Positions 1 to 20,690 of a DNA stretch of 64,000 nt are shown in pieces (within the stretch, counting starts at the first letter, position 1; every line of letters starts with the position of its first letter). The stretch is from assembly GCA_036172245.1 (NCBI GenBank), contig JAYWIR010000037.1:496001-560000 (forward strand), given 5' to 3'. This stretch comes from Raillietiella orientalis (lineage: Eukaryota). The translations under genes and the position numbers were made by a program. The notes beneath the pieces were generated by a model. It was not told where the DNA came from, made no database searches, and saw only the letters and a program-made list of their open reading frames with translations.

Positions 1-520
1 GCTTTCCGCCTCTTGAAGCCTTCCGATGGCGGAGATGAACTCCGCCATCTGAAGGGTTCCTCGAGGCTTCTTGCCCCTCCTCCTCTAACGCTCTTGTGCG
101 CTCTGGCAGCAAACGCTGCGCAGAGTCGTACTCTGAGGGTACCCTCACGTAAATCGAGGGGTAAAAATCACGTAAGTTTTCGGCTTACCTGAGCTGGGGC
201 CGAGTGTTCTTGGTCCCGATTGTTCAGCAAACAGGCCGATCCGAATTGCCCCCCAGGCCCATCTTTGTATACCGCCAGACGTCAGACGTCGGGAGTCTTG
301 CAGAAGCGACGGGTGTGGAGGTGCGCTGTTTCGCTCTGCACCCCATCGCCAAAACCTGGAGGAAGACGGCCCAGGGGGAACTGGTCGCAGAACTCTCGGA
401 CTGTGCATTTTAATTTGTCCCAGTCCTCGAACATCTGCAGTTCGGACCCTCGCAGGAATTGGAAGGTGCTCCGCTGCTCCTGAGAGGTTCAACTAGTCCC
501 CTGGCAAGCGCCATGCTTGG
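1..520 (-). mobile_element. Degenerate L1/Tx1-clade ORF2 fragment (endonuclease-RT linker)
   Basis: Minus strand across frameshifts reads AAEHL-QFLRGSELQMFEDWDKLKCTVREFC...PPGFGDGVQSE...ENLRDFYPSIY. This is collinear with the old element at 6799-7000 plus 3575-3735 (EAAEHLRDFLRG...WYETK...PAEFGEGMRNE). Confidence 0.6.
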
Positions 521-1299
521 GAGGGAGGACCCCTGTAGCGCGGAAGTGGGACCGCGCATTGGAACTCATTCGCGGCTCCTCTGCTCCTAGCCCTGCTTTT
601 TGTTTGCCACCCCTCACTTTTACATGGTGGAGACATCCAGAAACTTGTCACGCACGAACATGTATTTCTTTACATGAAATAGTGGACCGCGGACCTTTTA
701 AGAAACACCCTGTGGAGCAAAGAAAAGGCGCTCGTCTGGTTGAGAGATCTGATGACTTGACTCCAGTGGTGGTCTTAGCCTCATGACTCTTGAAGACAAG
801 AAGAGTCTGCTCCATCAGAAAAGAGTAGCATAAGTTTGGGAGAACTAGACGTTTCCATGGTGCGTCCCAGCACGTGCCCACGCCGAGTGAGCAGCCGGCT
901 GCGAAGGACTGACATCGTTCCTCGTCGGCAGCCACTGAAGTCTAACCCATGGCAGATGCTTGCCTTGGTGGAGGAGATCCCTTGGCTCTCCTGTCTCCCT
1001 GCGAACTGTACTACCTGACTTAAGGAGGCAGTTGACATGTGGGGAAGGATCCACGACACGAGGGCGGAACACGACTCCTGTCAGCTACGGGGCAGGTACG
1101 CTCTCGTCAGTCGTTTCAGGAGATCGTAAGCAAGGATCGAAGGTGCGTTGGGGCTTTGATAACTCTCCTTTGCCGCGGCGGTGCTCTCCTTAAGAAAGGC
1201 AAGAGGCGATGGAAGACAGGCAAGGCGGGAGACGAGCTGCTGCGTTCCAGGGAAAAAGAAACCTCTTGGTGGGTGGGTGGTCGACACGTGAACTGGCGG

Positions 1300-3040
1300 A
1301 CGTTGCGACCCCGAGTGTTTCCATTAAAAGGACTCTAACGCTGGGCTCAGCTCCGTCCCATGCAGACACGAGCAAAAATGAAAGGCAAGCATTCACCATG
1401 TTTGCATTTAGCATTTCTGATTTGTGCAGCTCTCCTACGAATCTTATCTTTCCAATTACTTCCGCTTAGCCTTACGTTCACCACCTCCATCATCAGCATT
1501 TCGTCCTTTTTCAAATTCTGGTTGGCATCTATCAAGAAACTTACGAAATGCTACTTCGTGCCTATCTGCTTGAAGTGCTTCCTCACTCATTTTGCCACAT
1601 TCTACTACAAAATTTGGTTCATCGACAGCCTTTTCAAATACAAAATTTAAACTTCCCCCCAATCGAATTTGCGTACCTCTTCCTAAAGCATGAATCGTGT
1701 CGATTCGTGAAAGGAACTTTTGTTGTTTTTTTAACCCTTTGAGTGTTGTGGACGCATAGATGCTCCCGAAGGAAGCCATCAGCATGGCGTTTACGCATGC
1801 GTTTGGCAAATTGCACGCGCAGCATAATTTAACACTGCCAATGTTTGAGATGGACATTCTCATCATCCCCCTGGCAACGACAGTAAACAAAATTCTGCTT
1901 GTATATCGGCCAACGATTCTCGGTTTCTCTCGGTGTTCGTACAGAATTTCTTATACCGTTTTTCATCTTTGTGATATCTTGAAAATGTGAATGGATCAAC
2001 ATTTTTCAAATAAATAATGATGCATGTTTGGGGAAAATGAAAACGTTTCATTTAATGTGGTGTTAAATAAAAACAATTACGATATTGACTTTAATCTGCA
2101 CTCTATGTAGTCAGTCGACAGAGCACGTGGTACGCGAAGAAGCGTTCCGTCCACTCGCATGCCGTCAACACGGAATTCTTCAACCGGATGGGCTCCACAC
2201 CCAAAGGGTTTATAATTGAATTTCCTAAACGTAACTGATCTTTCTCTGTCTCATTGTTTTGACGAGCACATTTACTGGAAGCATCCATGCATTCTGTTTC
2301 ATGTAAGTCAACTTCATTTAGATGGACTTTCAACTCCATAATTTTGGGAGCAGGTTTACGGCTTTTACCCAGAAGGCTTCATCCAATTGATCGAGGCACC
2401 ATTATGGGAGTGATCCCTGATTTGTCGAACGGGAGCTGGGGAAAAATCTATCGCTTCCTTGTTTCTGGAAAATCGCTCGCATCGACCCGATCGCCTTCCC
2501 GACTGCCGCCCACCTCAGACTAGCAGGGAATCCCTAGACGTGAGAGTGTCGACGGGTTCCGCTCCTGGCTCCACGACAACCGCGACCTCGTGGCATTGAA
2601 GGATTATTAGATGACTAGCCATTTGCAAACTCTTGTCTCAATTTCTTGAACTTTTGAGTTGACCAGAGAGCGTGCTGCAAATCCATAACGATCTCCCGAC
2701 TACACTTCCTTATTCCATCAGCATTAACACTTCCAACTTCTTTGTAGGATTCCATGCCATTGCTGTTATATTGAATTTGGATAGAAGTATTTTCACGACC
2801 ATTTTTCGCTTCATTCGACTTCTCACATCAAAAGGACTGCTACTCTTGGCTCAGCTTTTGGTGATTTTTCCAGGTGATCCGGTGCAGCCAGCAATGTGTG
2901 TGAACATTCATGCACCCTCCCCTGGAGTGGCAGGAGTTGGCGTTGTTGATCTTCCATTGAAGCATTCCATATAACGAACGCCTGCATCATGGGACCTGGT
3001 GAAATGGAGATCTGAACTGTGGCAGTTGTAGGAAAAGAGA
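1300..3040 (-). pseudogene. eIF4G: Decayed, apparently intronless eIF4G copy (eIF4E-binding region plus MIF4G domain)
   Basis: Collinear minus-strand motifs: NADGIRKCSREIVMDLQ (decayed YxxxxLphi site, ~2680-2730); KIMELKVHLNEVDLHETE-AW (~2285-2345); QKFLSRIDTIHAL...RLGGSLNFVFEKAVDEPNF...FRKFLDRCQPEFEK (1505-1730); then after a frameshift IGKIRFVGELHKSEMLNANMVNACLSFLL (1370-1460). Stops and frameshifts are present; boundaries approximate. Confidence 0.85.
1735..2208. mobile_element. Non-autonomous piggyBac-type element (MITE), 474 bp
   Basis: Left end TTAA|CCCTTTGAGTG and right end CACCCAAAGGG|TTTA: imperfect terminal inverted repeats starting CCCT with a TTAA-type target. Removing it rejoins the eIF4G reading at the start of MIF4G (..GNSII / K..QKF..). 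Confidence 0.7.
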
Positions 3041-3049
3041 AACCTTCAC

Positions 3050-3569
3050 GCGCCTGCTTGTGGACTGTGTTGTCCTCTGGCCCTTCTGGGAACGTTTTTC
3101 GATCCCAGGGACTCACTGAAACGCCACTTCGTGTGTGATGCGCTGCCACCAGTCGCGTGTTTAGCAGCTGCTTTCCGTTTGCTTGCGAAGGTGGTGGCAT
3201 GGAACGCCTACAGAAGAGGACAGCATCCAGGGACGCCATCCTTTGGACGAAAATGTTTTCATGAGGATCAAGACGAGATGATCCGACTTCAAAAACAGCA
3301 GGACAGAACTTGCTAGCACCCCAGAAAGGAAGCAGAGGGCACCAAGGCAGGAAATGTGATTCCTTCCCAAACCCTCCAAAGAATGTTTGTATTTGTTTTT
3401 GTATTTTTTATCTTTTTGTGCATCCCTTCCCTCTTGTTGCCGAGACGATGGTCTCCGGTCGTCGTACCGGCATCTTGGCAGGTTCCGTGTTCTGTGACCA
3501 TGTGACCGTTTGCTATTTTTTTTTCTTTTATAGTAAGCGTCCTGGCTCAACCGAGTGAAAAAAAAAAAA
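3050..3569 (+). mobile_element. 5'-truncated, diverged L1/Tx1-like copy with an A12 tail (copy F)
   Basis: Starts at LLVDC..FWER (end of zinc knuckle), shares the 3'UTR layout of the 3749-5662 element, and ends CCGAGTG followed by A12 (3558-3569). Confidence 0.7.
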
Positions 3570-3748
3570 CCTCCGGGCATGAGCGTTCCTGTCTCTAGTC
3601 GTCCAGCGAACTGGCCGACCCGGATTGCCAGGTTTGTCTCTCATCCCCAGTCTTAAACCCGGCCAGTCAGCAGCTGCATCCGACCTTCTCTGGTGACTCT
3701 GAGCCTGCAAGAAGGCATGCTCATTCCTCATCCCCTCACCGAATTCGG

Positions 3749-5662
3749 TTGAGCACCTACGCTGAGTTGGTGCTGAGAGCGTACAGGGTGACTTTGGCCC
3801 CCTTGCCGAGCTCGTGCCCCGGCACGCCAGCCGTAGCGGCGTATGCCGACGATCTTCTGCTCCTCTTACCTATGTCCACCCCGGCGAAGGCGGTCGGAGA
3901 TTTCTTCGACCTGCTTAGCCGTGGGGCCGGATTACAGGTTAACAGGGCGAAGTCGTCAGTGTTGCCAGTTGGAGCGACGTGGGCAGGGCAGCAGGACTGG
4001 GTCCGTCTGGGGATCCCCACGGTGAGGTGCATCAAGTACCTCGGTGTGCCGTTGGGGGACTTCTCCCCAGCGGAAGCGTGGTCCAGCTGCCTCCAAAAAG
4101 TCGAGACGGCGATCGGCCCGTTCCTGGAAGGCAAGTTTCACTTGCCGGAACGGGCCGCGGTTTGGAACGCCTTCGTGGCCCCCATCCTTCGCCCCTTGCT
4201 TTTTGTTTGCCCCGCACCCGTGGAATCTAAAAAGCGGACGAAGGACCTCCTCCGCATAGCTCTTTGGGGCAAGGGGAGGCCCCGAGTCCCTTTGAAGGAC
4301 TTGTGCGCTCCGCGTCGGGACGGCGGTCTCAGCATCCTGACGCTGGAGCGCGTGGAAATCTAGCTGCGATGGCGGACCCTCGCCATCGCAGCGAAGATGT
4401 GGAGCACCACTTGGTGCATTCCGGCCCGCCTCCTGGCCAGGCGTGTGTCCCGCTGCAAAGGACTCGCATCGTTTCTTCTGTGCCCTGGCCGGAAGATTCG
4501 AAGATGCGGTCTACTGCTCGGTCGCATGGCAACCCTGGCAAAGGAGAACGACTGGATGGTTTGTGGCCCTGCCAACTCCTCCGCTTGGCTGGAAGAGACT
4601 GCTGGCACCTGGGCCAAGCAGAACCAGAGGTGCGAAGACTGGATGAACTGCCTGCGAGTCGGCTTTTACGCCCGCCGAACTCTCCGTGAAATTCTTGAAT
4701 TTCCACCGAGTTGCACGTGGGCGGAAGGCACACCCCTTGTTACGGCGATGCCCTTCCTCCAAAGGGCGCTTCACGAAAGCCGGAAGCCAAGGTGGCAAGT
4801 CTGCTGCCGTATCGCAGGCAGAGAGAAGATGATGAGCGGCTGGACCATGGGAGAGTTGACAGATGCAACGACCCCTAGTCTCCAGCCGCGTGGATTAAGA
4901 AGATGGGGCGAACTGCTCGGCATTCGATTGGATGACCTGAAGTGGCCCCCGGTTCTACTTGGATCCAGGATTCTTCCCCTGAAGTGGCAAGAATCGGCGC
5001 TTCTGTGGCTGCATTGGGGTCTACCCTGCAACGCGCGCCGCTTCCACTGGACGCGGGGAAGAGTAAATCCTGAGTGTGCCAGGTGTGGGGAGCGGGAGTC
5101 GCTCCCCCACCTCTTAGTTGATTGCCCTGCCGTCCGGATTCTTTGGGATCGTCTTAAAACGGCCCTTGGGATACCGGATGGTGGCAACCCCAGAGGCGTG
5201 TACAGTCTTGTCTTCGTGCGGGACGCCCTCAGTCCAGCCGCAGCCCTGGCAGCACTTTGCTGCATTCGTGGTACCGTGGCGGCCTGGAGTGATGCCGAAG
5301 ATGAAGATTGCATCGTGAGGGACGTCATCGAGTATGCTGTTCGCTTCCTGCAGAGAGCTACCCGATGGCCCCATCTGGGAAAAATGAAAATGGAACTCGA
5401 AGGCATCCTGCAAAGGATGGGCCCTCCCAGCAGTTGTCTGTGATCCCTTCCCGGCCCTCCAAACTCCTTTTGTTGTTTTTTTATTTTATTTTATTTCTGT
5501 TTTCTCCCCCATCCCCCTCCACTGCCGAGGAGAGCCACACCGGGCTGCGTCCTGGTGTCCCGGCAGTTCCGGTATTGCGTGGCCGTCAGTGGGGCCTTGT
5601 ACCACGTTCTGTATTGACTGTTGAAATGTTTTTAATAAACGTCCCGGCGTATCCGGGTGGCA
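3749..5662 (+). mobile_element. Young 5'-truncated L1/Tx1-clade retrotransposon (array unit A); ORF2 remnant 3749-5443 with RT C-terminus and CCHC zinc knuckle
   Basis: AYADD, GLQVNRAKS, IKYLGVPL, PRRDGGLSI and CARCGERESLPHLLVDC motifs. ORFs 3749-4363 and 4397-5443 are in the same frame, separated by a single TAG (4361-4363). T-rich structured 3'UTR with AATAAA, ending GGGTGGCA; flanked by TCACCGAATTCG(G/A) at 3736 and 5663. Confidence 0.92.
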
Positions 5663-5675
5663 TCACCGAATTCGA

Positions 5676-5745
5676 TATAAGGAGATCGCCCTCCTCCATT
5701 AAGGCTGAAGTGTTTTAATAAACGTCCCGGCGTACCCGGGTGGCA
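5676..5745 (+). mobile_element. Extremely truncated copy (array unit B): last ~40 nt of the element preceded by ~30 nt of unassigned sequence
   Basis: TGTTTTAATAAACGTCCCGGCGTACCCGGGTGGCA matches the unit A terminus; flanked by the target motif at 5663 and 5746. Confidence 0.75.
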
Positions 5746-5758
5746 TCACCGAATTCGG

Positions 5759-6265
5759 TATGGGTGGGGATACCGGTTGGTGGCAACCCCAGAGACGTTT
5801 ACAGTCTTCTCTTCGTGCGGGACGCCCTGAAGCCAGCCGCAGCCCTCACAGCATTTTGCTGCATCCGTGGTATTGTGGCGGCCTGGAGTGATGCCGAAGA
5901 TGAAGATTTCAACGTAACGGACGTCATCCTGTATGCTGTTCGCTTCCTGCAGAGAGCTACCGGATGGCCCCAGCTTGGCAGAATGAAGGAAGACCTCGAG
6001 GGCATCCTGCAAAGGATGGGCCCTCCCCTCAGTGGAATGTGATCCCTTCCCGTCCCTCCAAACACTTTTTGTTTTTGTTTTTTCTCCTTTTATTTTATTT
6101 TCGTTTTTTCCCCCATCCCCATCCACTGCCGAGGGGAGTCACACCGGGCTGCGTCCCGGCGTCCCGGCAGGTCCGTTGTTGTGTGGCCGTTAGTGGGGCC
6201 GTGTACCACGTATGTTGTTGACCAATGCGAAGTTTTAATAAACGTCCCGGCGTACCCGGGTGGCA
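5759..6265 (+). mobile_element. 5'-truncated L1/Tx1-like copy (array unit C)
   Basis: GIPVGGNPRDVYSLLFVRDAL...LEGILQRMGPP is homologous to the unit A C-terminus; same 3'UTR and terminus; target motif at 5746 and 6266. Confidence 0.88.
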
Positions 6266-6278
6266 TCACCGAATTTGG

Positions 6279-6785
6279 TATGGGACACAGGACGTGGAAC
6301 GCACCAATTTCTTTCATTCCCAGGGACGTTTTGCGACTCCTCTTCGTGCGGGATGCCCTTTTGACAGCCGCAGCCTTAGCAGCTCTCTGCTGCACCCGCG
6401 AAATTGTGTTGGACTGGGGCGATGCTGAAAGAGGACAGTACGAGTGCGACGGCATCGAGTAGACACTCCGCTTTCTGCGGATAGCACCTAGATGACCTCA
6501 TCTGGGTGCTGTGAGGACGGACCTAGCCGACATCCTGGAAAGCATGCAGAGGACTCCCTCCAGAGATCCCTTCCCGGCCCTACACAGAGTATTTACTTGT
6601 ATTTATTTATTTTCTTTTTGTTTTCTTTCTTCCCCACCGCTGCCGAGGAGAACCACGCTGGTCTGCGTACCGGCAACCCGGCAGGTCCACAATCAAATCG
6701 AGCGTGGCAGGACCACGCGTGTCCTACCACAACGTTGTGAGTTTGTTGCCATTTTCAATAGGCGCTCCGGCATGCCCTGGTGGCA
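6279..6785 (+). mobile_element. 5'-truncated, more diverged L1/Tx1-like copy (array unit D)
   Basis: PRDVLRLLFVRDALLTAAALAALCC followed by stops; diverged 3'UTR ending CCCTGGTGGCA; target motif at 6266 and 6786. Confidence 0.82.
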
Positions 6786-8134
6786 GCACCGAATTCGGCA
6801 GGAAAGGGATCCACAGGGAAGCTCGTGTAGGACTCCTGGACCGACCGCGTTTCGTCTCGTACCAGCCCGCGACTGCTGCACGTTGACACCTCGCAGGAAG
6901 TCGCGGAGGTGTTCTGCGGCTTCCTGCAGGTGAAGGCGAACACCCGGTAGGCAGGCACACTGAGCGTTGGACAGGGGACCCTTCCGCGTTTGAGGGGTCC
7001 AATCTCGATCCGGGCGTGGTCCGAGATTCTGCATCCGCGCTCTGACACGACGACCAGCCCGCGAGCACAGGCGGCCGCCGAGGAAGACGTGATCGACGCT
7101 GCTTTCCATCCCTGGTCCGCCGGCCAGCAAGTTGAGCGCGTGCGTGGCCGCGCTCAACTCGTTGACCGTGTTGGGCTGTCCGCTTGTTTCACCTCACCGC
7201 AGGGGCATGTTGAAATCCCTCCCCCCCAATCAGGTGAGTTGGAATCCCACGATCTCCTCATGCCTGCGTGGCCCTGCCATTCACGCTTCAGGGCATCCAA
7301 GAGCTCTGTCATGGCCCGTTACGGCCGCCGGGAGCGTACATGTTCGTGATGACGAGGTGGGTCGAGACCGAAGTGAACGCTTCGCACAGCGCTCTCTGTG
7401 GCTGTCTGAAGCAGGAAGGCAGAACTCCCACGAGGGGTTCTCGGAGCAGCAAGGCCAATGCAGCTTCCCTCCCGGGGTCCGTTTCATCTCGGGGTCTTCC
7501 GCCTGTGGATCCTCTGCAGGAGTACCAGATCGAACGGACATAGGCTGTGTCTCGTCTCCTGCCGTCGTAGCGCATTCCGTTGATGTTGCAACAGGCGGTG
7601 TGCAGTCCAAGGCAGGAGGCGAGTCGCCTCATTGCTGCTGGGAATTTCAGCTCCCGTTTGGTGCTCAAGAGGGACGCTCGCAAGTGGAGAGGAGATCGAA
7701 AGGACGGTGTCCCCTTCCCTTCATCCTCCTTCCGGAGCGGAGGATTCTCTGTGCGGATGGTTCTCGCGAACCTGTCTTCAGGCCTTCTTGCCTTCCGCTT
7801 CATGCATCCCCTCCTCGGAGGGGATGCACCAGCCTCCGAAGGAGATCACGTGTCTCCTCTCTGCTTTGGACTCTTCCGGTGGGTGGCCGTGAGGGTAGCC
7901 GCCTCCAATCCAGAGTCTGAAGCCTCGAAGAGGTTTTCTCCTTGGGTTGTCTGAAGATCTTTTTCTCCTCGGACTTTCCGTTGCTGCGCGCAACTATCAC
8001 CTCCTTGTTTTCCTCAGAGAGGGTAGCAGCTTCGCCTCGTTTTGATTCATCTTTCGTTGTCTCTTGAAGGAACATGGACTCTCGCTTTTACCACGCTCTT
8101 GATAGTTTATTCGGTCGTCGCAATGCGCTCCATT

Positions 8135-8830
8135 CTCTTCCGGGTGTGCCGGGGCATTAATTCCAGTGAAAAATAACCATTTTCTGAGAACTGTGGTTGC
8201 ACCGCCGGTCCACAGTTTAATGGAAGCCTGGCGGGTCACGGTTCACAGACCGGCGTGGTCCACCACGGCAGCAGAGGAGAGGGGGCAAATAAAAAGAAAA
8301 AAAATAGATAAATTAAAATAAATACACCTTCAGGGGGTAGTGGTGGTGCGGGAAGGGATCACTGTCTTCTGGTGGCGGTCCTGTGCATCCTCTGTAGGAT
8401 GCCGGCAAGGTCTTGCTGGGTAGTCCTGTCCAGATGGGGCCATCGCGTTACCATCCACATGAAATCGTACAGCGAAGTGAAGGTGGCATTTCTGTCGCTG
8501 TGGCCTCCCCTTGCGTCGCTCCAGGCAACGACGATCCCCCTGCAGGCAGTGGAGAGCTGCTGCTAGCGAGGCTGTCGGTCGAAGGGCATTGAGAACGAGG
8601 AGGGGTTTCAGAGCGTCCTGGGTTGCGCCGGGAGTTTCATAGGATCAAAGCGTTCCCAGAAGGGACGAAGGGCAATACAATCCACTAGCAGGTGGAAGAG
8701 GGATTCACACTCCCCTCATCTGCCTCAGTACCTCATCCCCCATGTCCAGTGATGCCTGCGGGCGTTGCACGGGAGACCCCAGTGCAGCAACAGTGCCGAC
8801 TCCTGCTAGACAGTGCGCTCGAGGGTTACT
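8135..8830 (-). mobile_element. Diverged 3' fragment of the same L1/Tx1-like family (copy I)
   Basis: Minus strand QESALLLLHWGLPCNARRHHW...ESLFHLLVDC, followed by the T-rich 3'UTR and a terminal CCCCGGCACACCCGG hairpin. Confidence 0.75.
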
Positions 8831-8899
8831 TTTCAGGGTCGAGCGTGCTCTTTTCGTGATCCACTGTTACTGCGGTGTAGGGTTTTGATGCATTTTTTT

Positions 8900-10890
8900 T
8901 TTTTTACGTCACTATCTGTCAGCCCGCATCTTCCGGTTCTTTGAGAAGGGTTTTCCGACTGCGTCCGGCTGGGCTCGGCGACGACCTCTGCACTTTTTGG
9001 TTTGGAATTTTTTGTTCTCTTGCGCGATTCCGTCTGCACTCGCTCACTCCCTCTGCGGATTACGCTGCAGGAGTTTCGCGAGCGAGCCTTTGGGGGCAAG
9101 ACATCTTCAATGTGGTGGCTCGACTGCTCGCAGCGGCGGATACCTTCTCCTCAGATGCCCCCTTTTGTTGCCGCTGCCGCACACCTTGGCTTCGAGGCAC
9201 TCAGCGCCGATCTGCATTCTAAAGGGAAGCTGCTTGCCTTCGTCCACGGTGACGCGCGCTGCAGCCAAGCCACTGAACCGCCCCTGGAATCAGGGGAACA
9301 CTTTGGGCGTGCACCGTTGCTGGCAGGGAACTTTTTGGTCTATCCGCAATTCCGGTAGTCCGGTAGAGTGGACTGCCACTCAGCTGTCCCCCCCCCCCCC
9401 TTACATGGAAATTGCTCTGCCCTCAGCGCTGATAGGGGTTTTCAGTAATCTCTGGGCGGATCCTGCATCCTTGCAAATGAGCTTGGATCATGGATTGGCC
9501 CCCACGGATCACACCGAGGAACCTTCCACTCTTCCTTGTCAAAGTTCCGTTTGGCCAGTTCCTCGGCGATGCCACCCGGGTACGCCGGGACGTTTATTAA
9601 AAAAACATTTCTTCAGTCATTACAGAACGTGGTACAAGGCCCCACTGACGGCCACGCAATACCGGACCTGCCGGGACACCGGGACGCAGCCCGGTGTGGC
9701 TCTCCTCGCAGTGGAAGGGGATGGGGGAGAAAACAAAAATAAAATAAAATAATAAAAAAACAACAAAAGGAGTTTGGAGGGCCGGGAAGGGATCACAGAC
9801 AACTGCTGGGAGGGCCCATCCTTTGCAGGATGCCTTCGAGTTCCATTTTCATTTTTCCCAGATGGGGCCATCGGGTAGCTCTCTGCAGGAAGCGAACAGC
9901 ATACTCGATGACGTCCCTCACGATGCAATCTTCATCTTCGGCATCACTCCAGGCCGCCACGGTACCACGAATGCAGCAAAGTGCTGCCAGGGCTGCGGCT
10001 GGACTGAGGGCGTCCCGCACGAAGACAAGACTGTACACGCCTCTGGGGTTGCCACCATCCGGTATCCCAAGGGCCGTTTTAAGACGATCCCAAAGAATCC
10101 GGACGGCAGGGCAATCAACTAAGAGGTGGGGGAGCGACTCCCGCTCCCCACACCTGGCACACTCAGGATTTACTCTTCCCCGCGTCCAGTGGAAGCGGCG
10201 CGCGTTGCAGGGTAGACCCCAATGCAGCCACAGAAGCGCCGATTCTTGCCACTTCAGGGGAAGAATCCTGGATCCAAGTAGAACCGGGGGTCACTTCAGG
10301 TCATCCAATCGAATGCCGAGCAGCTCGCCCCATCTTCTTAATCCACGCGGCTGGAGACTAAGGGTCGTTGCATCTGTCAACTCTCCCATGGTCCAGCCGC
10401 TCATCATCTTCTCTCTGCCTGCGATACGGCAGCAGACTTGCCACCTCGGCTTCCGGCTTTCGTGAAGCGCCCTTTGGAGGAAGTGAGTTCCTCGGCGAAT
10501 GAGCGCACAACGGAAGCAAGAGCAAGACGGCCTACCTTGTCAGGCAGAGCCGACCGGTATCCTTGGGCCATGTAGACCCGGGTTTCCGTCTGGGCAGTTG
10601 GAGCAACCGTAGCCGCCACCTGACTCCATGACGAGGGGTGTTGATTCCCTGGAGACCACTGCCTCTGTCTTCATTGCTAGGGGGAAGAAATTTGCACTTC
10701 GCCTTTCCTCATCGGCGATGTTTGCAGGCATTCCTGTCATTCGTGCACTGCGAACACGCCGACTTCAAAAAACACAGGTAAAAACTAGACAACAAGCGCT
10801 TGCAGTCATGGGCGGATCGAAAGACAGAGGGAGGGAGAAAACATTCCTGTCGCTTCTTACTTGCGCCCGGAGTAACCGGACGTAAGCGAG
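8900..10890 (-). mobile_element. Old L1/Tx1 ORF2 remnant (linker and RT start), host of copy E
   Basis: Minus strand PANIADEERRSANFF (~10690-10730); VVRSFAEEL|AKRNF rejoined across the 9570-10485 insertion; LLKTPISAE (~9425-9450). Heavily frameshifted. Confidence 0.5.
9570..10485 (-). mobile_element. Young 5'-truncated copy E, nearly identical to unit A 4753-5662, with a perfect 13-bp TSD
   Basis: Near-identical translated ORFs to unit A; AGTTCCTCGGCGA duplicated at 9557-9569 and 10486-10498; no poly(A) tail. Confidence 0.93.
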
Positions 10891-12552
10891 AATTTCTATC
10901 TGGAACTGCATTTTGTCCTCGATAAAAGAGCAAACATCAGCAGGAATGACTACATAAAATGGATCTCAAGACGACCTTGTTTAGATGCTTTCAAAAGTTT
11001 TTTTTTTTTTTTTTTTTCATTTTCAGACTTTTTATATTGCTCTCTCTCTGTTTCATTCCCGAGATTCGGAGGATGTTGTTTTTTTGTCACAGCGCATCGG
11101 GCACTTGCACCCACCTTGGAGACGAAATACGGAAATGATGAACGGGGGAATTTTTCATGGCACACCACCCACGCGCAAAGTGAAGTTGGCCTTTGTATCG
11201 ATTCGGTTTCCATTTTCATCCGTGTCTTAAAGGACACATGACGACGTGGAATACGAAACTCCGGATGCGAACTTTATCATCACATTCGTCTACCAGCATA
11301 TCCATTTAACACCGTACTGATGGATCAGTCACCATGACGCCGACTCCGTTCATCTCTCTGTCGCGTTTTGCTGTGGCTGCTCCGCGTTTCTGTTGTCCTT
11401 TAGGACTGATCGCATTTGCAGGCCCTTCCGAAAATTAAGGATTATAAATGGGGATTCATCACGGGATGTACAGCAGCAGAGGGGGGGGGGGGGAGAAAAA
11501 AATGGGCTGAGTAGAAGAGTAGAATCAGGCAAGTTCAGAAAAACATACCGTGGTGACTGCTGTATTTGTGAACACCTTTGTCTTCAAATCTTGAACGAAA
11601 CGGGCTCTCGGTGAGGTAGTCAGCTGACACATGTTCCGAAAGCCTTCAGGGGTATCCCACCCACGCGGTGCAATTTACACCCCAACTTCTTTTTTCCATT
11701 ACCATCAGTGATCTCTAGGATTAAGAAGCGGAAAAATGGAAACAAAATGCTTGTAGGAAAGTGATTTACTTTTGGAGCAGTAAAGAGACATCACTCTGCA
11801 GGGAGAAAGTTTCTTTCAAAATTGTGCTGATACAGTTAAAGCACGAAGCAGTCCACAGAGGAAGAGGCAGTGATTGCTAGTTGTCCAACGGAAACCGAGA
11901 ATTACGGGAAACCAAAAAATGCGAAACGAAGCCGATCGATTCGGCAGATGTTGCCATTGAAGGAAAAGGCACAGCCATCATTTTCTTGCACAGGTAGATG
12001 GTGTGTGTTTCCTCATGGCACGCTGTTGCAGCTTTTCTTTCGCCTATGCATGTATGTTAAGGTAGCCAACCATCCGAGACTCGTCACGACTTTCCTTTTT
12101 TGCTAAGCGGCCCAGCTTTTTTTCAGCTCTTTTTCCTAATTCTTTCTGTTTCAATGTTGAATGTGGAAGCTGGTAGGCATGGTGGTTATGAAATTAATAA
12201 TTACATCCACGATTCAGTGATGCGGGAAACGTGATAATCTGGTTCTTCAGATTCCTTTTTTTAACTTGCATGCAACCAGTGTCGGCTGCCTATGATCCAC
12301 TGTCTATGATCAACTCTATGATCTACCATTCTCGCGAACCTATCCATGATTTGCAAACTTGCTACTAAGAAGAAGAAGAGGAGGAAAGTTGGAGACTCTG
12401 TGGTAGCAGCGGTCTCCGCGCATGGTGCCACGCGTTGCGGGTTCGAATCCCCACGTCGAGGATCGACTCTGGGAAACGGGCGCTTCCTGGGTTACGAGTT
12501 TTCGCCTCAAGATTGCGCTGATTGGACTGTAAGCTTTGAGTGCGGCATCGGT

Positions 12553-14194
12553 TGACACTCGGTCATGCCAGGGCGTTTATTTATAAAAAATAAACGTACA
12601 TGTCTGTGGCAGAACGTTTGATCCTGCCACGTTACTTATAACAACGAGAGGGAACCTGCCTGGAACTGGCACCAGTGGGGTTAGCCTCGGCAGCACAGGG
12701 GAAGGGGAGACAAACAAAAAGAAAAAAAACAAAAAAAATTCAGTCAAAAAATGAGGGAGGGGGGGGGGGCAGGGAGGTTCAGGAAAGGCTCACCGTGTGT
12801 GCTGGAGGACGTCCTCTGCATCCTTGTGAGGATGCCGGCAAGTTCCTGTTTTATAGTTCCCAGATGGGGCCATCTTCACACTGTCCTCATGAAGAGGACA
12901 GCAAAATAGATGGCGTCCCTGTCGTCCTGGCCTCCTCTGGCGTTGTTCCATGGAGCCACGATCCAGCCACGTAGGCAGCAAAGTGCTGCTAGGGATGCGG
13001 CCTGACGGCATGAGAGTGTCATGCAGGAAGAGGTGCTTCGGAACGTCTCTGGCAGTGCCGCCGGGGGTTCCAAGGGTCGTGGCCAAGCGCCCACAAAGGG
13101 GCCGGAGGGCAACAGTCTACCAGGAGGTGCAGGAAGGATTCCTTCTCCCCGCAACTGGCACAGTTCGGGTCCCCCCTCCCCCCCATGCCCAATGATGCCG
13201 GTAGGTGTTGCATGGGAGGCCCCAGTGCAGTAGCATCAACGCCGACTCCTGCCATTTTAAGGGGAGAGTATGGGTGTTTATGATCACCGGGGACACTGCA
13301 GCATACCCAGCAGCACGCTTCAACCCGAAAGTTCACGAGGTCGAGCAATCGGAGTCGCAGTTTCGGTGAGCTGGTCCGTCATCCACTCGCCCAGTCCTCT
13401 TCTTCCGGAGATTTCCACAGTAACCTCCCATCTAGCCGTAAGCTGCTACCCATGTGCTCTTTAAGGGAGGGCATCCCGGTGGCGAGGGAGGTTCTGTTTG
13501 CTCATGCACTCTTCGCGGTATCTTCCAGGATTTCCCGGAGCGTGCAGTTGTTACGCGCATACAGGATTCGTCGCACCTGTTCCCGGCTTGGCTCCTGGAT
13601 TCGCGCCCACGTGCGAACGGCTTCCGGGAACCAGGCACTACCGTTCACGGGGCTGCACGAGATCCAGCTGATCTTCCTGGTGAGCGTGGCCATCCGCCGA
13701 AGCTGCAGCCCGCAGCGGGAGATGTTAAGGCGACGGCGCGCAAGGAAGCAAGCGAGTCCCACGCTGCCGGTGGCTTTCTGGAGGAGGTGAGGTGCAGGTT
13801 GGCACCAGGTGGTGCTTCACAGGTTTGCCACGAGGGCAAGTGTCTGAAACTATGGCTGCAATTCCGTTCGCTTCAGCGTCAGGAGGCCTAGGCCGCCTTC
13901 TCGACGCGGAGCACACACGTTCTTTAGGCAAACTCGGGCCTCCTTTTGCCCCAGAGGGCGATCCGGAAGAGATCTTTTGTCCGCTTTCTAACGTTGCATG
14001 GCGGGGTGCAAACAAAAAGCAGGGGGGTCACGGAGGTGTTCCATACTACGGCCCGTTCCGGCAGTTAAAACCTGCCTATTTGGAATGGGTCCATCGCCTG
14101 CAGTGCGTTCTGAAGACGGTCGGACCGGGGTGTTTCTGCGGAGCAGAAGTCCCCCAACGGAATGCCCAGGTACTTTAAGTACCGACCCGTAAAG
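12553..14194 (-). mobile_element. Diverged 5'-truncated L1/Tx1-like copy G inserted in the tRNA-headed repeat
   Basis: Minus strand KYLGI, PRREGGLGLLTL, LPLKWQESALMLLHWGLPCN, CASCGEKESFLHLLVDC; 3'UTR with AATAAA ending CCGAGTGTCA; decayed TSD GTGCGGCATCGGT (12540-12552) versus GTGCGTCATTCGT (14195-14207). Confidence 0.85.
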
Positions 14195-14439
14195 GTGCGT
14201 CATTCGTGGAAGCCGGAAACCGGATGTTCTGTTGAGTGGCCAAGATTGAAGGTGAACCCTCCGGGGTCCTTCCAGGAATCGAGAGCCGGTTCCTTTCGGG
14301 GTTCCCCTTCGGTTGTACAAACGAAGCTTCGTGGAGCTCGTGGATTTCCTCCAGAGCATCGAGAAGTGCGCTGCTCCCTTAGGGAGGAACTCTTCAAAGA
14401 AAATTTGGAAGCGTCCCTTCGGGATTTCCTTCGGGAACA

Positions 14440-15546
14440 ACCAGGCCGGATGGCCTGTTGTCCATCGTCAACTCTATGCTTGGCTAGGAGAAACATTCGG
14501 CACGTGGGCGAAGATGAGCGAGCCGAGCTCCGAAGAATGGAACTGGTTAATGGAGCGCCATCTGTGCCCGCTACTCGCAGAGGAATATCCAGCATGAGCG
14601 CGTGGGCGGAGCAGACCCCCTCGCAGCAACGATGCCTTTCCTAAGGTTGGCACTTGACAGCCGCCGTTAAACGTCGAGGTGGGAAGTCTCTTGTGAGATC
14701 GTAGGCAGGCGGAAGCTGATGGGTGGATAGACCATGGGGCATCTGGAAGATGCGGCGACCCCGAGTGTCCTTCCATGAGGACTTCAACACGAGTAAGCTG
14801 TCGGGCATTCCCAGCGAGGACCTGGAGTGACATCCAGTGCTCAAGAACAGCAGCACTCTCCTCCTGAAGTGGCAAGAGTCGGCACTTATGCTGTTGCTCT
14901 GGGGTCTTCCTTGAAACTCACGTCGACTCGGGGGGGGGGGTGGCGAGCCCGGACTGTCGCAGGTGCGGGGAAGAGAATCCTTTCGCACCTGCTTGTGGAC
15001 TGTGTTGCCATTGCGGACTGTGGCACCTGTGGGAACGTTTCGAAACGACCCTTTGGATCGCGGTTGGCACCTCCAGGACGCTTCACGGCTCCTCTTTGTG
15101 CGGAATGCCCTGCAGCCCCAGCAGCGCTTTGCTGCATCTGTGGGATAGTGACGACCTGGAGCGAAGCCGACGGAGGAAGAAACGAGAGGGACGCTGTACA
15201 GCTCGCAGTCCGCTTTCTGCGGATAGCGACCAGATGGCTCCACCTGGGACCTATTCGGACGGCCTATCTGGCATCGTAGAAAGGATGCAAAGGACTCTCT
15301 CCAGCGGACAGTGATCCATTCCCGACCCTCCAGGTTGTTCCCATTCCTTTGTATTTGTTGTTTTCTTCCATTTTTCTTTTCGCTTTCTCCCTTCCCTCTC
15401 CGCCGTCGAGGGGATCCTGGGTCTGGGGACCGGCGACCCAGCAGGTCTATAGACAGACGGACTGTGGCAGGGTACCACGCGTGTCCCGCCGCATTTTATG
15501 AGTTCATTTTAGATTTCAATCAATGCCCCGGCGTGTCCGGGTGGGA
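14440..15546 (+). mobile_element. Diverged 5'-truncated L1/Tx1-like copy H
   Basis: AWLGETFGTWAK, LLKWQESALMLLLWGLP and CRRCGEE..HLLVDC with stops and frameshifts; family 3'UTR ending CCCGGCGTGTCCGGGTG. Confidence 0.82.
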
Positions 15547-15989
15547 ATTGGAGACAACCAAGGTGGGAGGCTCCCTTCCAAGCCCTAGAGGAATGGATTC
15601 CCTTCCTGCATTCAAGGAGTGGTCCCCTCCAGGGTTGCGCCTTTAACTTGTAGAGTTACTACATGCAGGGAACCGTGCTAAAGAGCTCCGCAAGCCTTCA
15701 GGCGGATGACGGTTCCTGAGTACTTAGCGAACCAAGAGAAGGCAGAGATCGTCAAGTCCTCCTTTACCACAGAAGTGTAAAGTAAACAGAAACGAACAGC
15801 GGGAAGAAACCTCGGGAATCTCTGGAAACACTGAAGTTCGGGAACAGCGGTTGAAACAGTCGGATGGAACTAAAAAAAAAAAAAAAAAAAAAAAAACACT
15901 ATCTTCGCATTTTCGAAGTTTTCATTTCGCCATTTCGAGAATCGTTCCTTCCGCATCCGAAAAGTGCTCTGCTTAAAGGAATGCAAGCG

Positions 15990-18900
15990 GATCTGTGCAG
16001 AATGCACCCACCCGGATCCTCGTGAGCTGCACGACCATCGGAAGCGGCAATCGGGAAGACCACCCTCGCGTCCCCGACCGGCCTTATGCTGCTGCAAGCG
16101 AGCTACGCGTTTCCACGCCCCCGCTTTGCCTGCCACCGTGCGGTCACTTACGGAACCGAGCCGCATCCGCACAGGTTGCCCGGCTGTTAGTAGCGGGAGA
16201 AGCCAGCAGATCGGCACAGCGACGTGCGCGTGCCACTTGCAACCCGCAAACCGTTCTTACCGCGGTTGCGGCAACCCGATGCCAACTGCCGCGTTCCGTC
16301 GTCCATGGAGTGACAGCAGACCGGGGAATGGACTGGCCAGAGGCCTGCCGCTTTGCTGAGACGCAGGAGGAGACGCGAAGGGAAACGCGCGTTTTCCTTA
16401 AAACTAGAGGCGCTCTCCGGGATGCTCATCCGCTTGGCGCCGAATCGGGAAGCGGGGAACGGCCCCGCCCCCTCCCTCCTCCTTCCCCCTCCCGCGAGGG
16501 AACGACAGGATGCTCCCTTCGCGACTTGCCTCCCCCTGCACTCCGCCTCCTCCCAGGGGCGTCGCTGCCTCGGGTCGCGCGACTCCTGCCGTTGCCACCA
16601 GGGGCCGTCGAGCGAAGGGGGAGTGGCGATGAGCAGCGGCAGAGGACGTGTGCACTCCGCGGGAAGGGACCAGACTCCCGGAAAGTCGTGTTCCCCGGGA
16701 ACGCCCCGCGCACTCGAGCCTCCCGCCTTCCTCCTTGAGCCGGACAGGAGTGCCGGGCAGGACGTCCTCCCCTCGAGGAGCGGCGGCGCGACAGCGACGG
16801 AGTCGGGGCGCCGGTGTCCAAAGGCACGGCCGCCCGTCCCGGGACGCTCCCGACAGGATCCGACTCTAGGGTATCGCGGACGAGCCCTTCCTCCCCAGGG
16901 TGCGTGAGTCCCCTTTCGGGGGCTGAAGGAGGGGACGTTGGCCTCCGAAACCGGGAGCGCCTGCGCCCGCAAGGCACCCGGGCTGTTCCTCTTTGCGCTC
17001 GAGAACTCCCTTCTCGCCGTGGGTTTCTCCTGGACCCTGGATCTCCAGGGTGAGCCTCGAGGGCTTTCTCCGAAGAGCCTCTTTGGAACGAGGGGGTTTC
17101 GAAGCAGGGCCGCCGCCGGGACTTTCGGTCGCCCGAAGAGAAGAAGGGGTCCGGATGTGGGGAGCTGCTCGAGGGTCCTGCGCTCCCACTCCCCCCCTCC
17201 ACTCTGGGTCTGCTTGCGGTGGGACCAGGGAGATGCTGCAGCCGGACGGGAGGGACTCCCCGTCACCACCCACATCCGACCGACTTGCCCGCCGGCGCCG
17301 CCGCAAACCCCCGCTGGGGTTCCTTTACTCCCACGTCATCACCCGAGCGCAGGAGAGCGCGCCGCGAGGGCTGCTGCAGGTGCAGCTGGCGGGAAGACCG
17401 CTGCCCCGGCTCCTGGAATCGTTGCGTCTCCGAGGCCCTTGGCCTCGGAGAGCTTTCGTCCCCGGAGGAAGGGAACGCTCCCGGACGACGGAAGACGCTC
17501 CCCACCCCACCCCTTTCCACCCGATGCAGGAGCCGGGGCAATTCTGGGCACTCGCCGAGGTGCAACCGCGGGGAAGGGCGGGGGAGGAGGATCCGTTCGA
17601 CCCAGCGCTTCCACAGGAGGACTCTGGGGTCTCCTCCCTGCAGGCGCGATACCTCAGGGGCAGGTGAGGGAGGGACCGGGCCTTGGGGTCGCTGCGGCAT
17701 TCGCGTCCTGGCGCTCTCTCCTGAATAATGAGCATCCGAGGGCGGAAGATCATCGAGCCATTTTCGGGGAGACCTTGAGGTCCCGGATAGGTTCTGAATG
17801 ACTCATGTGGAACGAGTCATAGACTCCCGGGGAGGAGCACGGGAGCAGAAACCTACGAGGGACCGTGACGGCAGGAAGGGCAGGGAGGCAATCCGGAGCC
17901 GACGGCGGTCGTGGACGAGGGAGGGAAGAGAGAGCGAGAGACCCCTTCTCCGCTCCCCCCCCCCCTTCGGAGGCGGTTGCGAAGGACGCGCTCCACGGGC
18001 CCGCGCCTCAGCAGGAGGAGGAGCGGCGGCTCCGGCAATTCCTGTCCGGGAACCCCCCGAACCTCCGCCTCCGCTGCCGAGTTGGCGCGGGCCGACGTCT
18101 GAAAGTTGGCTCGCGGGGGAGGAAGCCGGCGTCCCAGGTGGGGCCGGCCGGCCCTTTCCTCTCCTTCCCACAGCGAGGAGCAGGGCGGTAGCTCTCCATC
18201 CTCCGAGGAGGGAGGTGGGATGGGAGACACTCCGGGGGAGGCGGGAAGGACTGGAAAGGGCCCCCTGCCAGGAGAAGCGGCTCTCGGAGGAGGAAGTGCT
18301 GCTCTCCCAGGTTCCCATTTTCATGCGTCCGGCAGGCGGAGCGGGGTGCGTTGTGGCAGAGATCCGCGGCTCTTCCGCCGGCTGCCCCGCCGCGGGCTCT
18401 CGGCTTCGGTGCCCCGACGGTCGCCAGGGACGAAGGGAAAAGGTAGAGGGGTAAGAAGGGTCGGAGCGGGCCCAGGAGGAGGAGGAGGAGGACAGCGTGC
18501 TCCCTTCTTTCCACCCTTCCCCTCGGGATGCGGGCAGGCGAGGAGCACCTCGTCCTCCACTCTCCGGAGCCGCCCTCCCCCCCCGGGCTGGAAACAAGGA
18601 AGGGAGGACGGCGATCGAGGGGGAAAGGATTCCCCCTCACCTCCTTCTGGTTCCGGGACCGCCCTCCGTGCTTCTTGGCAACTGGTCTCGCGTCCAGCGG
18701 GGGAGGTGAGCTGCGCAAAAGGTTTTCGTGGGCTTTCGTGCCTCTCGGGCAAGATCAGGAGACCGACCGGGCAGGGGCGCCCCCGCTGCCGCTTCCCGCC
18801 ATAACCCGGGAGCTCCCGGAGTCGGGAAGAACCTCCAGATGCTTTCCGCGGGCTCGCGCGGCGCTGCGCTCGGGTCGGCCCCTGATTGGTCGCGGTAACC

Positions 18901-20690
18901 TCCCCCCTCCGGGGGTGATCTCTTTACCCATCACCCTACACAGCGGACACTAGCGGCGGGCACTGGAGGGCGTCCGGGAGCAGCCGACCTCCAGCAGCAG
19001 AAGCGGCACCTTGGAAACTGCTGCAGGCGACGGGGGCGCCATCAGTGGCACTTCCACTTGGGGTAGCTTCCAGAAATCCCCGTCCCCCTTTCCCCTTCTC
19101 AGGCACCGAGGCGACGGATCCGTCTCCGGGACCAACCGTGCCATCTCTGCGCCCTCCCGCCTTTCCCAAGCTGGAAGGCAGGAAGAGGCTGGGGAATCGC
19201 CCGGTCCAACTAGGTGCTCCCGAGTTGCGCCTCCATCCGGCGCGAGGTGCCCGCAGCCTTTGCGGACGTCATGCAGGAGGCAGACGAAGGCCTGTGGATC
19301 GATAGATGCCGCGTCCCCGCGCCGAGGAGCCTCCTCCCGCGCGTGCGCAGCCGTCCTCCCACCGCGCTTCCTCCTCCACCTCCTCCGCGGGCTCGTCTGC
19401 AAGGAGCAGGCTGACCCGGAGCGCTCCTCCTCCTGCGTTGTATCATGCGGAGATGCGACTCCTCCCCCGCGCGAGACGGCACCGCGCCTGCTCGTCCCCA
19501 GCTTTCCCCGCACGCTTCATTCCTCATCTTCGCGTTTCCGGTCGGGCGGATCCGGGAAAACCCCTAGATTGATCTTCAGTGACCCCTGACCCCTACTGGC
19601 GAACGCGCAGTCAACTCCTGGTTCCTGCGGATCGGGGATCGGGGTGACGAAGCCCGGGAAGGCATCGGGTGGAGCGCGCCGCATACGATGCACAGGTCCC
19701 AACGTCACGGGCGGTAGGGTTCCCTTCCCTCTCTCTCTCCTCCCTAATTCCACTCTATGGGCCTCAATTCCCTTCTTTTTCGTTCTCCTCCTTTTACTTT
19801 CCTCCTTCCTCCAGCTCCCTCCGTTCCCGTCGAGGACTCGGCCAGCACCCTCCCTCCGGGAGGACTTTGTTGGACTCGGAGTGACGTCACGTCCCACCGT
19901 CTACTCCGGACGGTGAACGAACGCCGCGGCGCGGCCGGGCGGAAAGGCAGAGAGGCGCAGCTGCCTCTCGCCTGCATGGCGCCCGGATGAGCGGAGCTCG
20001 ACAGGGGTGTTTGACAAATCACGAGAAACGGATCTGGCCGCCGTCGTCTTGGAGAGGGGGGGGATGGAGTCCTTTCGCTTCCCACCCTCCCGCTGCCACC
20101 CCACCCCTTTCACCTCCAGCTTCCGTGAAGCGATCTGCCCACCTGGTAGCTGGGCGAGCCTACAAGTGCGATGGCGAAGTCTCGTCGCGAAGGCTGAGCC
20201 CGTAACTTCCCTACCCCGCTCCAGTCTCCGGGTCCACCCCCACGTTCCCTCTTTGCAAACGCGGTCGCGGTAGCTCGAATTTTTTTTCCTCTCTCGGAAG
20301 ACGATGGGTGTGTCTACGGAGCACCCGTGTGCCGCGCGGCACCACCGGAAGTACCCATCCTCTGCCCAGCTGGGAACGTCATCTGCGAAGCGAAATGGGT
20401 GCGCGCACGCGCGCGCCATGCGACGCGGAGATTTCAAAGCTTCAGCAGCCGGACAGACGGATCCTTCGGTGCTTGTTCCAGGTCCTGCATCCCGTTCCCA
20501 TTCGAGCCCGACTCCCATCCAGGTAAGGGACGTCGGAGTCAGGCTGCGCGAGCGGGCAGCCGAAGTGTCAGATCTGGAGCAGAGTTTGCAAGATGGAACG
20601 AATCGAAGCCTGCCGATGCCCAGTCAAGGTTACGGCAGCCGTTCTACCTCCGTGTACCATGCGGGCTTGTCAGTACGTCGAGGATAAAAA
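15990..20690 (+). CDS. Putative highly divergent (possibly disrupted) CTC1-like CST-complex subunit gene; exon structure not resolved
   Basis: GC-rich block with short GT-AG intron-like segments (18895-18943, 19063-19102). Collinear peptides resemble human CTC1 as recalled: LPPCGHL~LPCCSHL, LSGMLIRL~LAGSLVRL, ARPGT..RVS~LRPGT..RVS, APGLF~PAGLY, WIDRCRVPAPRSLLP~YIEDPHLPPSLGLLP. No in-frame start ATG found, and some frame changes lack obvious introns. Confidence 0.45.

Follow-up and report, generated by a model that had tools for sequence, protein, structure and literature searches.

A tail-less L1/Tx1-group LINE clade and a candidate bipartite target site within its own ORF2

In the genome of Raillietiella orientalis, LINE copies that end without poly(A) run directly into short duplications of their targets and are found stacked and nested inside older retroelements, raising the question of what directs these elements to such sites. 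We addressed this in a 64,000-nucleotide stretch (G000:C37:496001-560000, referred to here as the window) of the 210-Mb assembly and across the genome. The explanation that best accounts for the whole, which we regard as probable, is an APE-type clade of the L1/Tx1 group whose ORF2 protein would read a bipartite site located in the clade's own ORF2, with successive copies stacking there.

Stacked and nested copies in the window

The window contains a four-unit array (3750-6786, plus strand), as described in an earlier note on this sequence, and every unit is followed by CACCGAATT(C/T)G. Copies of this repeat lie before, between and after the units (3737, 5664, 5747, 6267 and 6787), the one at 3737 preceding the array. 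The array and its host comprise the following features.

3722-3748, plus strand: array target, with upstream context at 3722-3736 and the 5' copy of the target site duplication (TSD) at 3737-3748
3750-5663, plus strand: unit A, outermost 5' and youngest; C-half of the RT, zf-RVT and 3' UTR
5676-5746, plus strand: unit B, very short (about 45 nt of 3' end), bounded by the TSD copies at 5664 and 5747
5764-6266, plus strand: unit C, of another subfamily, 86% identical to A; a TSD copy is next at 6267
6280-6786, plus strand: unit D, the oldest, with about 67% identity to A; terminates in GGTGGCAG, with the host target next at 6787
6787-7660, minus strand: old relative hosting the array, endonuclease and linker coding sequence; resumes at 3574-3748 across the array

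All four units share a single orientation and a single nick position, and they represent four different lineages stacked at one site. The unit with the least divergence stands at the 5' edge and the one with the most at the 3' edge, the order expected if each insertion renews the target at its 5' side. On the 5' side of unit B (5676-5705), about 27 nt do not align to the reference element. The host was identified by tblastn, with amino acids 9-283 matching in 6787-7660 and amino acids 310-365 at 3574-3743; an open frame crosses the rebuilt empty site, which reads ...PAEFGEGMRNEHA... in frame. The array target is the antisense of the host codons F-G-E-G-M-R-N-E. Tandem Repeats Finder, run on the window, did not detect the array, and Rfam returned 0 matches for window positions 1-20000, indicating that the array target is no known RNA gene.

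Copy E is inserted in a different older relative.

8889-10800, plus strand: older relative (ORF1 region) hosting E in antisense; outer limits approximate, from tblastn
9557-9568, minus strand: 3' TSD of copy E, 12 bp from C, or 13 bp counting the shared T at 9569
9569-10485, minus strand: copy E, a 5'-truncated young copy with the end of ORF2, 3' UTR, AATAAA and a terminal 5-bp hairpin
10486-10497, minus strand: 5' TSD of copy E, from comparison of the junctions
10498-10512, minus strand: upstream half of the E target, with a CGTT box at 10509-10512 (-15 to -12) and a pyrimidine-rich stretch at -6 to -1

Copy E is 98% identical to array unit A over 922 nt. Its terminus, ...CCCGGGTGGCAT, has no A-tail; the last letters are GGTGGCAT, and poly(A) is absent. 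This end directly abuts a perfect 13-mer, TCGCCGAGGAACT, present at 9557-9569 and again at 10486-10498, confirming the tail-less junction and the 13-bp repeat reported previously. A tblastn search with the family ORF1 matches the host at 9137-9307 and across the rebuilt empty E site (E = 1.6e-5). The sites of the array, E and G all lie inside older retroelements, as had been proposed: the array in the ORF2 of a relative, and E antisense in the ORF1 of another.

The window holds further copies, most of them from sister families.

32-543, minus strand: old relative with an uninterrupted hotspot; codons GFGDG at about 335-350
2919-3569, plus strand: copy I, sister family; ends GAGTG plus a 12-A run
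8133-8806, minus strand: copy F, sister family; ends AAGAGAA, flank TGGAG
12551-14190, minus strand: copy G, sister family, 66-70% identical; ends GTGTCAA, flank CCGATG
14450-15547, plus strand: copy H, sister family; ends GTGGGAA, flank TTGGAG

Identity to A is 65-71% for copies F, G and H and array unit D; these copies, and copy I as well, have terminal sequences of their own. The common end of the sister families is AATAAAYG-CCYGG-N5-CCGGGTG, closed by 2-4 terminal A or by AT. No convincing TSD was found for copies F, G, H and I in the window; the ACCGA duplication once assigned to copy G could not be recovered, the best candidate being 6-7 nt. The earlier note had also cautioned that F, H and I are older copies without the motif. 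They are in fact sister families with their own ends and flanks rather than aged copies, so that this caveat falls away. Several sister-family ends are followed by TGGAG or TGGAC (F at 8133, H at 15547, L059 and L204), and others by ATCGAA or CT(T)CCCC; the differing end flanks suggest that sister families have other targets. The 12-A run of copy I (3558-3569) is the sole long A-run observed at a family-like end, and slippage or a tailed sister family may lie behind it.

The LINE nest adjoins ordinary genes, with BLTP1/KIAA1109-like exons at 46219-60518 (plus strand) and a fucose pyrophosphorylase domain at 30281-31591 (minus strand). The best named matches of the BLTP1 gene are in arthropods (39-47% identity), placing the family in an invertebrate animal host. 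Positions 16000-20000 are GC-rich with many overlapping open frames; the single frame checked there has no Pfam match.

Genome-wide junctions and the target signal

The full-length copy L050 is 5.66 kb long and carries an ORF1 with a CCHC knuckle and an ORF2 with APE and RT domains and a C-terminal zinc-binding region. Pfam recognizes Exo_endo_phos (E = 3.6e-12) and RVT_1 (E = 5.4e-23) in the ORF2 protein P0002 and zf-CCHC (E = 2.9e-5) in a piece of ORF1. The 5' truncation of copies, their TSDs and the separate ORF1 are features of the L1 group. To collect junctions, a degenerate 26-letter pattern of the 3' end was searched genome-wide, and the DNA was examined for all but two of the 100 matches listed. 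The pattern has 105 exact matches in the genome, compared with 0 for a reversed control. With further family loci added, at most 3 mismatches allowed and identical 100-nt contexts merged, we recovered 100 distinct junction contexts and kept the 98 with a family alignment. A single ORF2 spot accounts for 30 of these; another 11 abut the 5' end of a full-length copy, the window array contributes 3, and 52 are at other sites, with 2 dropped as likely duplicates.

GGTGGC is followed by one A at 79 of the 98 junctions, by two at 16 and by none at 3, never by more than two. At the 52 other junctions the next bases are A (49), T/A (42/10), C (51), G (37), C (42), C (47) and G/C (31/16). The target at these dispersed sites starts with C in 51 cases, CRCC in 32, CRCCG in 19 and CRCCGA in 5, against a CRCC background of 1.1% per position. 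The junction logo, a check proposed in the earlier note, is strongly non-flat and reads C-R-C-C-S. The RCCGA preference suggested in that note was correct as to a GC-rich target; the core is CRCC(S), however, and the trailing GA is weak outside the hotspot.

TSDs were accepted by eye at 22 of the 52 dispersed sites. They are 9-16 bp long, with 13-14 bp in 12 cases, and all 22 start with C. The base preceding the 5' TSD copy varies (T 10, C 6, A 5, G 1), and the 3' junction is AT or AA in 20 of 22. Across 89 ends, the choice of AA or AT follows the element tree (7 changes compared with a shuffled mean of 15, 0 of 500 shuffles). The variable base at -1, together with AA/AT endings that follow the element tree, shows that the terminal AT/AA belongs to the element and that the nick falls before C. 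The repeats previously described as TSDs starting with TCGCCGA or TCACCGA are thus real, but their leading T is encoded by the element and the duplications start at C. The motif is present in the 5' TSD copies of the 22 sites and in 6 intact empty host copies, and so in empty sites and not just in the element RNA, which rules out a pure element tail.

The element end itself carries a plausible terminal hairpin. In the alignment, 92% of cells pair and slid partners pair less; among 29 ends no compensatory (double-sided) change was found, shuffles equal the observed value, and z-scores for folding of the whole end range from +1.2 to -2.7. One junction, L112 (G000:C46:4760), has 9 extra nt that equal the sequence after head-to-tail source copies, or the subfamily A leader, possibly from read-through RNA or a template jump.

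On the element strand the target signal is CGTT-N5-(Y-rich)CYH^CRCCS. The upstream matrix was built from 21 sites after removal of one hotspot homologue and records C at -15 in 16 sites, G at -14 in 12, T at -13 in 10, T at -12 in 14, T at -5 in 11, C at -3 in 15 and a pyrimidine at -2 in all 21. In leave-one-out comparison with 671 decoy C-N-C-Y sites, the distal box (-15 to -12) and the proximal box (-6 to -1) each give p = 2e-4, with median percentiles of 0.90 and 0.95, respectively. Both boxes lie outside the TSD, where the 3' end of a read-through RNA cannot pair. Few sites were available for training the matrices (21 and 51), and family-related DNA itself makes up 19 of the 52 dispersed flanks. 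The copy E target ranks first in the window by matrix score, although it belonged to the training set; the array target, which was left out of training, comes second among about 128,000 window positions. The signal is a loose one, since the shorter matrix gives real dispersed sites scores anywhere between -0.4 and 13.2, and the window has about 1 site per kb scoring at least 8.

Full-length copies differ in how they begin. Those of subfamilies B and C start directly after a host-derived TSD. Most full-length A copies start with CGCCGAAAGYCGG, even where the host target differs (L053, L122); in L027 this A leader (CGCCGAAAGYCGG) follows a separate host TSD, and in L025/L206 and L202 host-type sequence stands in its place. 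We infer for subfamily A an RNA whose target-like leader would join through homology.

The GC-rich preference, which the earlier note contrasted with TTTT/A and ascribed to the endonuclease, is real; the endonuclease alone may set it, with RNA-primer pairing as a rival. Read-through transcripts extending into the downstream TSD (CGCCG...) would then pair with the nicked primer and set positions +1 to +5, the endonuclease adding loose pyrimidine and purine preferences. We consider this unlikely as the main cause. It would fit the lack of poly(A), the presence of CRCC after nearly every source copy and the 9 extra nt of L112, as well as T at +2, which clusters on the element tree (4 changes compared with 6.9, 0 of 500 shuffles). 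The A leader is also in its favor, being unlike the host target in L053 and L122 and lying after a separate host TSD in L027, as is the requirement of R1Bm for downstream target sequence (as cited in PMC7265360, available text). However, 3' RNA pairing cannot give a signal at -15 to -12 and -6 to -1, and A versus G at +2 is off the tree, 257 of 500 shuffles being as low. Pairing is compatible with a site read by ORF2p and may act on top of it.

A hotspot in the ORF2 linker codons

When long copies are scored with the matrix from dispersed sites, one spot ranks first of about 10,000 in four of four (two each of subfamilies A and B). This spot, in the linker that joins the endonuclease to the RT, is the antisense of the ORF2 codons G-F-G-E-G-x-x-N (amino acids 309-316 of P0002), with the CGTT box being the reverse of the Asn codon plus one base. 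It accounts for 30 of the 98 junctions, or 44 when 5' ends and the array are counted, and thus exceeds the share of one sequence type in >20% of flanks taken to denote target specificity (PMC4494074, available text). The array site is the same ORF2 hotspot in an old relative. Copies land in antisense in their siblings and occasionally in their own subfamily.

After synonymous shuffling, the hotspot is still first in 145 of 200 cases, indicating that the peptide motif itself encodes the target. No selection on the synonymous sites of the hotspot is seen, 22 of the 200 shuffles scoring as high. Judged by the commonest row per cluster, 14 of 16 sequence clusters retain the GFG motif; hotspot scores range from below zero to 16, so that not all relatives are good hosts. 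In a sample of 30 copies (32 matches) of one host subfamily, 24 are occupied at the hotspot base and 6 are empty with the full motif. Given the looseness of the signal, sequence alone may not account for this 80% occupancy. A small element branch (L064, L099, L100) has targets starting with CTCC, matching hosts with GGA at the second glycine, a possible drift of specificity.

These counts could be inflated if the hotspot excess were mostly copied guest-in-host composites, whether produced through segmental duplication, by 3' transduction or by being carried along in host transcripts. Guest and host divergence are correlated (Mantel rho 0.80, p = 0.0005), three near-identical, duplicate-like pairs occur among 24, long flanks are shared, and at most hotspot junctions no TSD could be recovered within 6.6 kb, in many cases because a full-length B or C copy has interrupted the guest at the guest's own hotspot. 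Copied blocks may thus make up part of the hotspot count. Shared locus age would also yield the correlation, however, and copying leaves unexplained both the motif at 52 dispersed sites and the prediction of the hotspot from them. Further, the hosts belong to many subfamilies (64-94% identical to the reference), the guests come from several branches, and four lineages are stacked at the window site; guest-host combinations are shuffled and 5' junctions differ, indicating repeated events. One hotspot insertion, L115 (G000:C60:647676), has its own truncation and a short target-site deletion instead of a TSD. Amplification is thereby refuted as the sole cause, and as the main one we find it very improbable. 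Nested insertion into existing copies is observed, and family copies occur on dozens of contigs, several per large contig, also beside genes.

The earlier proposal that a palindrome, CCGAATTCGG, makes the array hotspot by offering the motif on both strands is scarcely credible: the palindrome is present at the array site, but every unit has the same orientation and nick position, no palindrome of at least 4 nt occurs at 20 of 30 hotspot junctions, and the array site, an ordinary ORF2 hotspot in a relative, takes second place in the window by a score with no palindrome term.

The endonuclease, its relatives and a proposed mechanism

The best solved relative of ORF2 is human L1 ORF2p (E = 2e-49 by sequence, and the same by fold search), and the catalytic motifs are present. 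The spacer from GDFN to xIDH is 36 amino acids in all three family rows, compared with 52-65 in 27 of 27 measurable homologues (38 aligned rows), and it is 36 amino acids in 41 of 41 distinct clade sequences. Judged from these alignments, the endonuclease is short by about 22 residues over the betaB6-betaB5 groove-probing hairpin, with which human L1 reads T-tracts, and the predicted structure has no hairpin at that position (low confidence, pLDDT 55-72). In APE-type LINEs, target choice is generally attributed to the endonuclease hairpin, and in L1 also to pairing of poly(A) with T-tracts. The missing hairpin may be linked to the changed target choice of this family. Counting against the reading of a site recognized by ORF2p, the loop deletion L3G in the human L1 endonuclease leaves 0% retrotransposition and 10% nicking (PMC1950540, available text); since deletion of the L1 hairpin nearly abolishes activity, precise nicking without it is puzzling.

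In an RT tree, a placement the earlier note had called for, the family groups with L1/Tx1-type sequences. In this midpoint-rooted quick search it shares a branch of 57 rows (SH-aLRT 96) with L1-like proteins of plants, frogs and fish, whereas RNase H-bearing and other LINEs lie elsewhere; the family itself forms a long branch (1.07) at an open fork of a tree that includes no labelled Tx1 or Zepp references. Homologue searches, an atlas search and a cluster look-up yielded no labelled Tx1 protein. The metagenome protein P0115, 69% identical to ORF2, sits on the same long branch, indicating that the clade exists outside this assembly. Scanning metagenomes with P0115 turned up 7 loci, all matching weakly (22-35% identity, apart from one 28-residue piece at 61%) and none belonging to the clade.

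The family belongs to the L1/Tx1 group, as a possible member of Tx1 proper, and works like Tx1-Mar and Zepp. Tx1-clade LINEs, including Tx1L in Tx1D and Tx1-Mar in Mariner-N4_AMi, likewise combine APE and RT in animal hosts; Tx1-8_Crp and Tx1-4_AMi insert in LTR retrotransposons, and Keno, Kibi and Koshi are further target-specific members. They prefer other repeats, including transposons, as targets (PMC4494074, available text), and the Tx1L endonuclease nicks its own target specifically (PMC1950540, available text). In contrast, the target here is a protein-coding motif of the element's own clade, in antisense, and the dispersed sites are many and degenerate. At the place where the present enzyme lacks about 22 residues, Tx1L carries a hairpin loop of 11, and the family RT is just 24-31% identical to named fish and frog proteins and is placed apart from them.

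Zepp (Coccomyxa/Chlorella) and ZeppL (Chlamydomonas) are, similarly, L1-group LINEs that nest into existing copies and form tandem 3'-end arrays (available portions of PMC8226300 and PMC3446292). Zepp is green-algal with one cluster per chromosome, whereas this family is found in an animal, on dozens of contigs and beside genes, which rules out membership in Zepp/ZeppL. Unlike Zepp, it has a defined nucleotide target coded by a peptide motif and nests in antisense across subfamilies; L1-1_CR (ZeppL-1) ends in poly(A) (PMC3747384, available text), and the ends of this family do not. Human LINE-1 is the closest solved structure by sequence and fold and shares TSDs and 5' truncation, but the present elements have no poly(A), a GC-rich target in place of TTTT/AA, no hairpin region and a conserved, fixed 3' end. 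A mammalian-type L1 is ruled out by the GC-rich logo, the missing hairpin region and the finding of more than 2 A at 0 of 98 junctions. In R1Bm and R2, target-bearing RNA aids precise junctions (earlier work cited in the available portions of PMC7265360 and PMC4494074), recalling the target-like 5' leader and possible 3' read-through seen here; those elements belong to other clades and target rDNA, and a role for RNA in this family would rest on few junctions. Within the open-access literature, subscription papers and Repbase being outside its scope, we found no LINE aimed at its own ORF2 codons.

The geometry of target-primed reverse transcription is well established, and the preferred reading, a site read by ORF2p, can be set out on it. 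ORF2p would recognize the degenerate GC-rich signal CGTT-N5-(Y-rich)CYH^CRCCS on the element strand and nick the bottom strand just 3' of ...SGGYG. Reverse transcription would then start at the fixed RNA end ...GGUGGCAU/AA, which lies behind AAUAAA and the short hairpin that may hold it, with no poly(A) copied, as judged at the DNA level. A second-strand nick 9-16 nt on would produce the observed TSDs, mostly 13-14 bp. The best natural match to the signal is the reverse complement of the clade's own conserved ORF2 linker codons, so that copies land antisense in siblings. After each insertion a complete target, its upstream boxes included, would again stand 5' of the new copy, in front of which the next one lands. 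Head-to-tail stacking with the youngest copy 5'-most would follow, an order suggested by divergence, and the A leader would add a further target copy.

A bolder reading, which we offer as possible but somewhat doubtful, is that a hairpin-less endonuclease has adapted to the reverse complement of a peptide motif which the element's ORF2 is obliged to keep. Every active relative would then carry a landing pad, and TSD regeneration together with the leader would create a self-renewing safe harbour that disables competing siblings; the CGTT box would point to a targeting surface other than the hairpin, possibly RNA-guided. A clade that appears to lack both hairpin and poly(A) yet inserts at a defined nucleotide may serve as a test case for how LINE specificity is encoded and could be re-engineered. 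A target in the elements' own conserved codons would account for the self-assembly of transposon-only islands and for mutual suppression among sibling LINEs.
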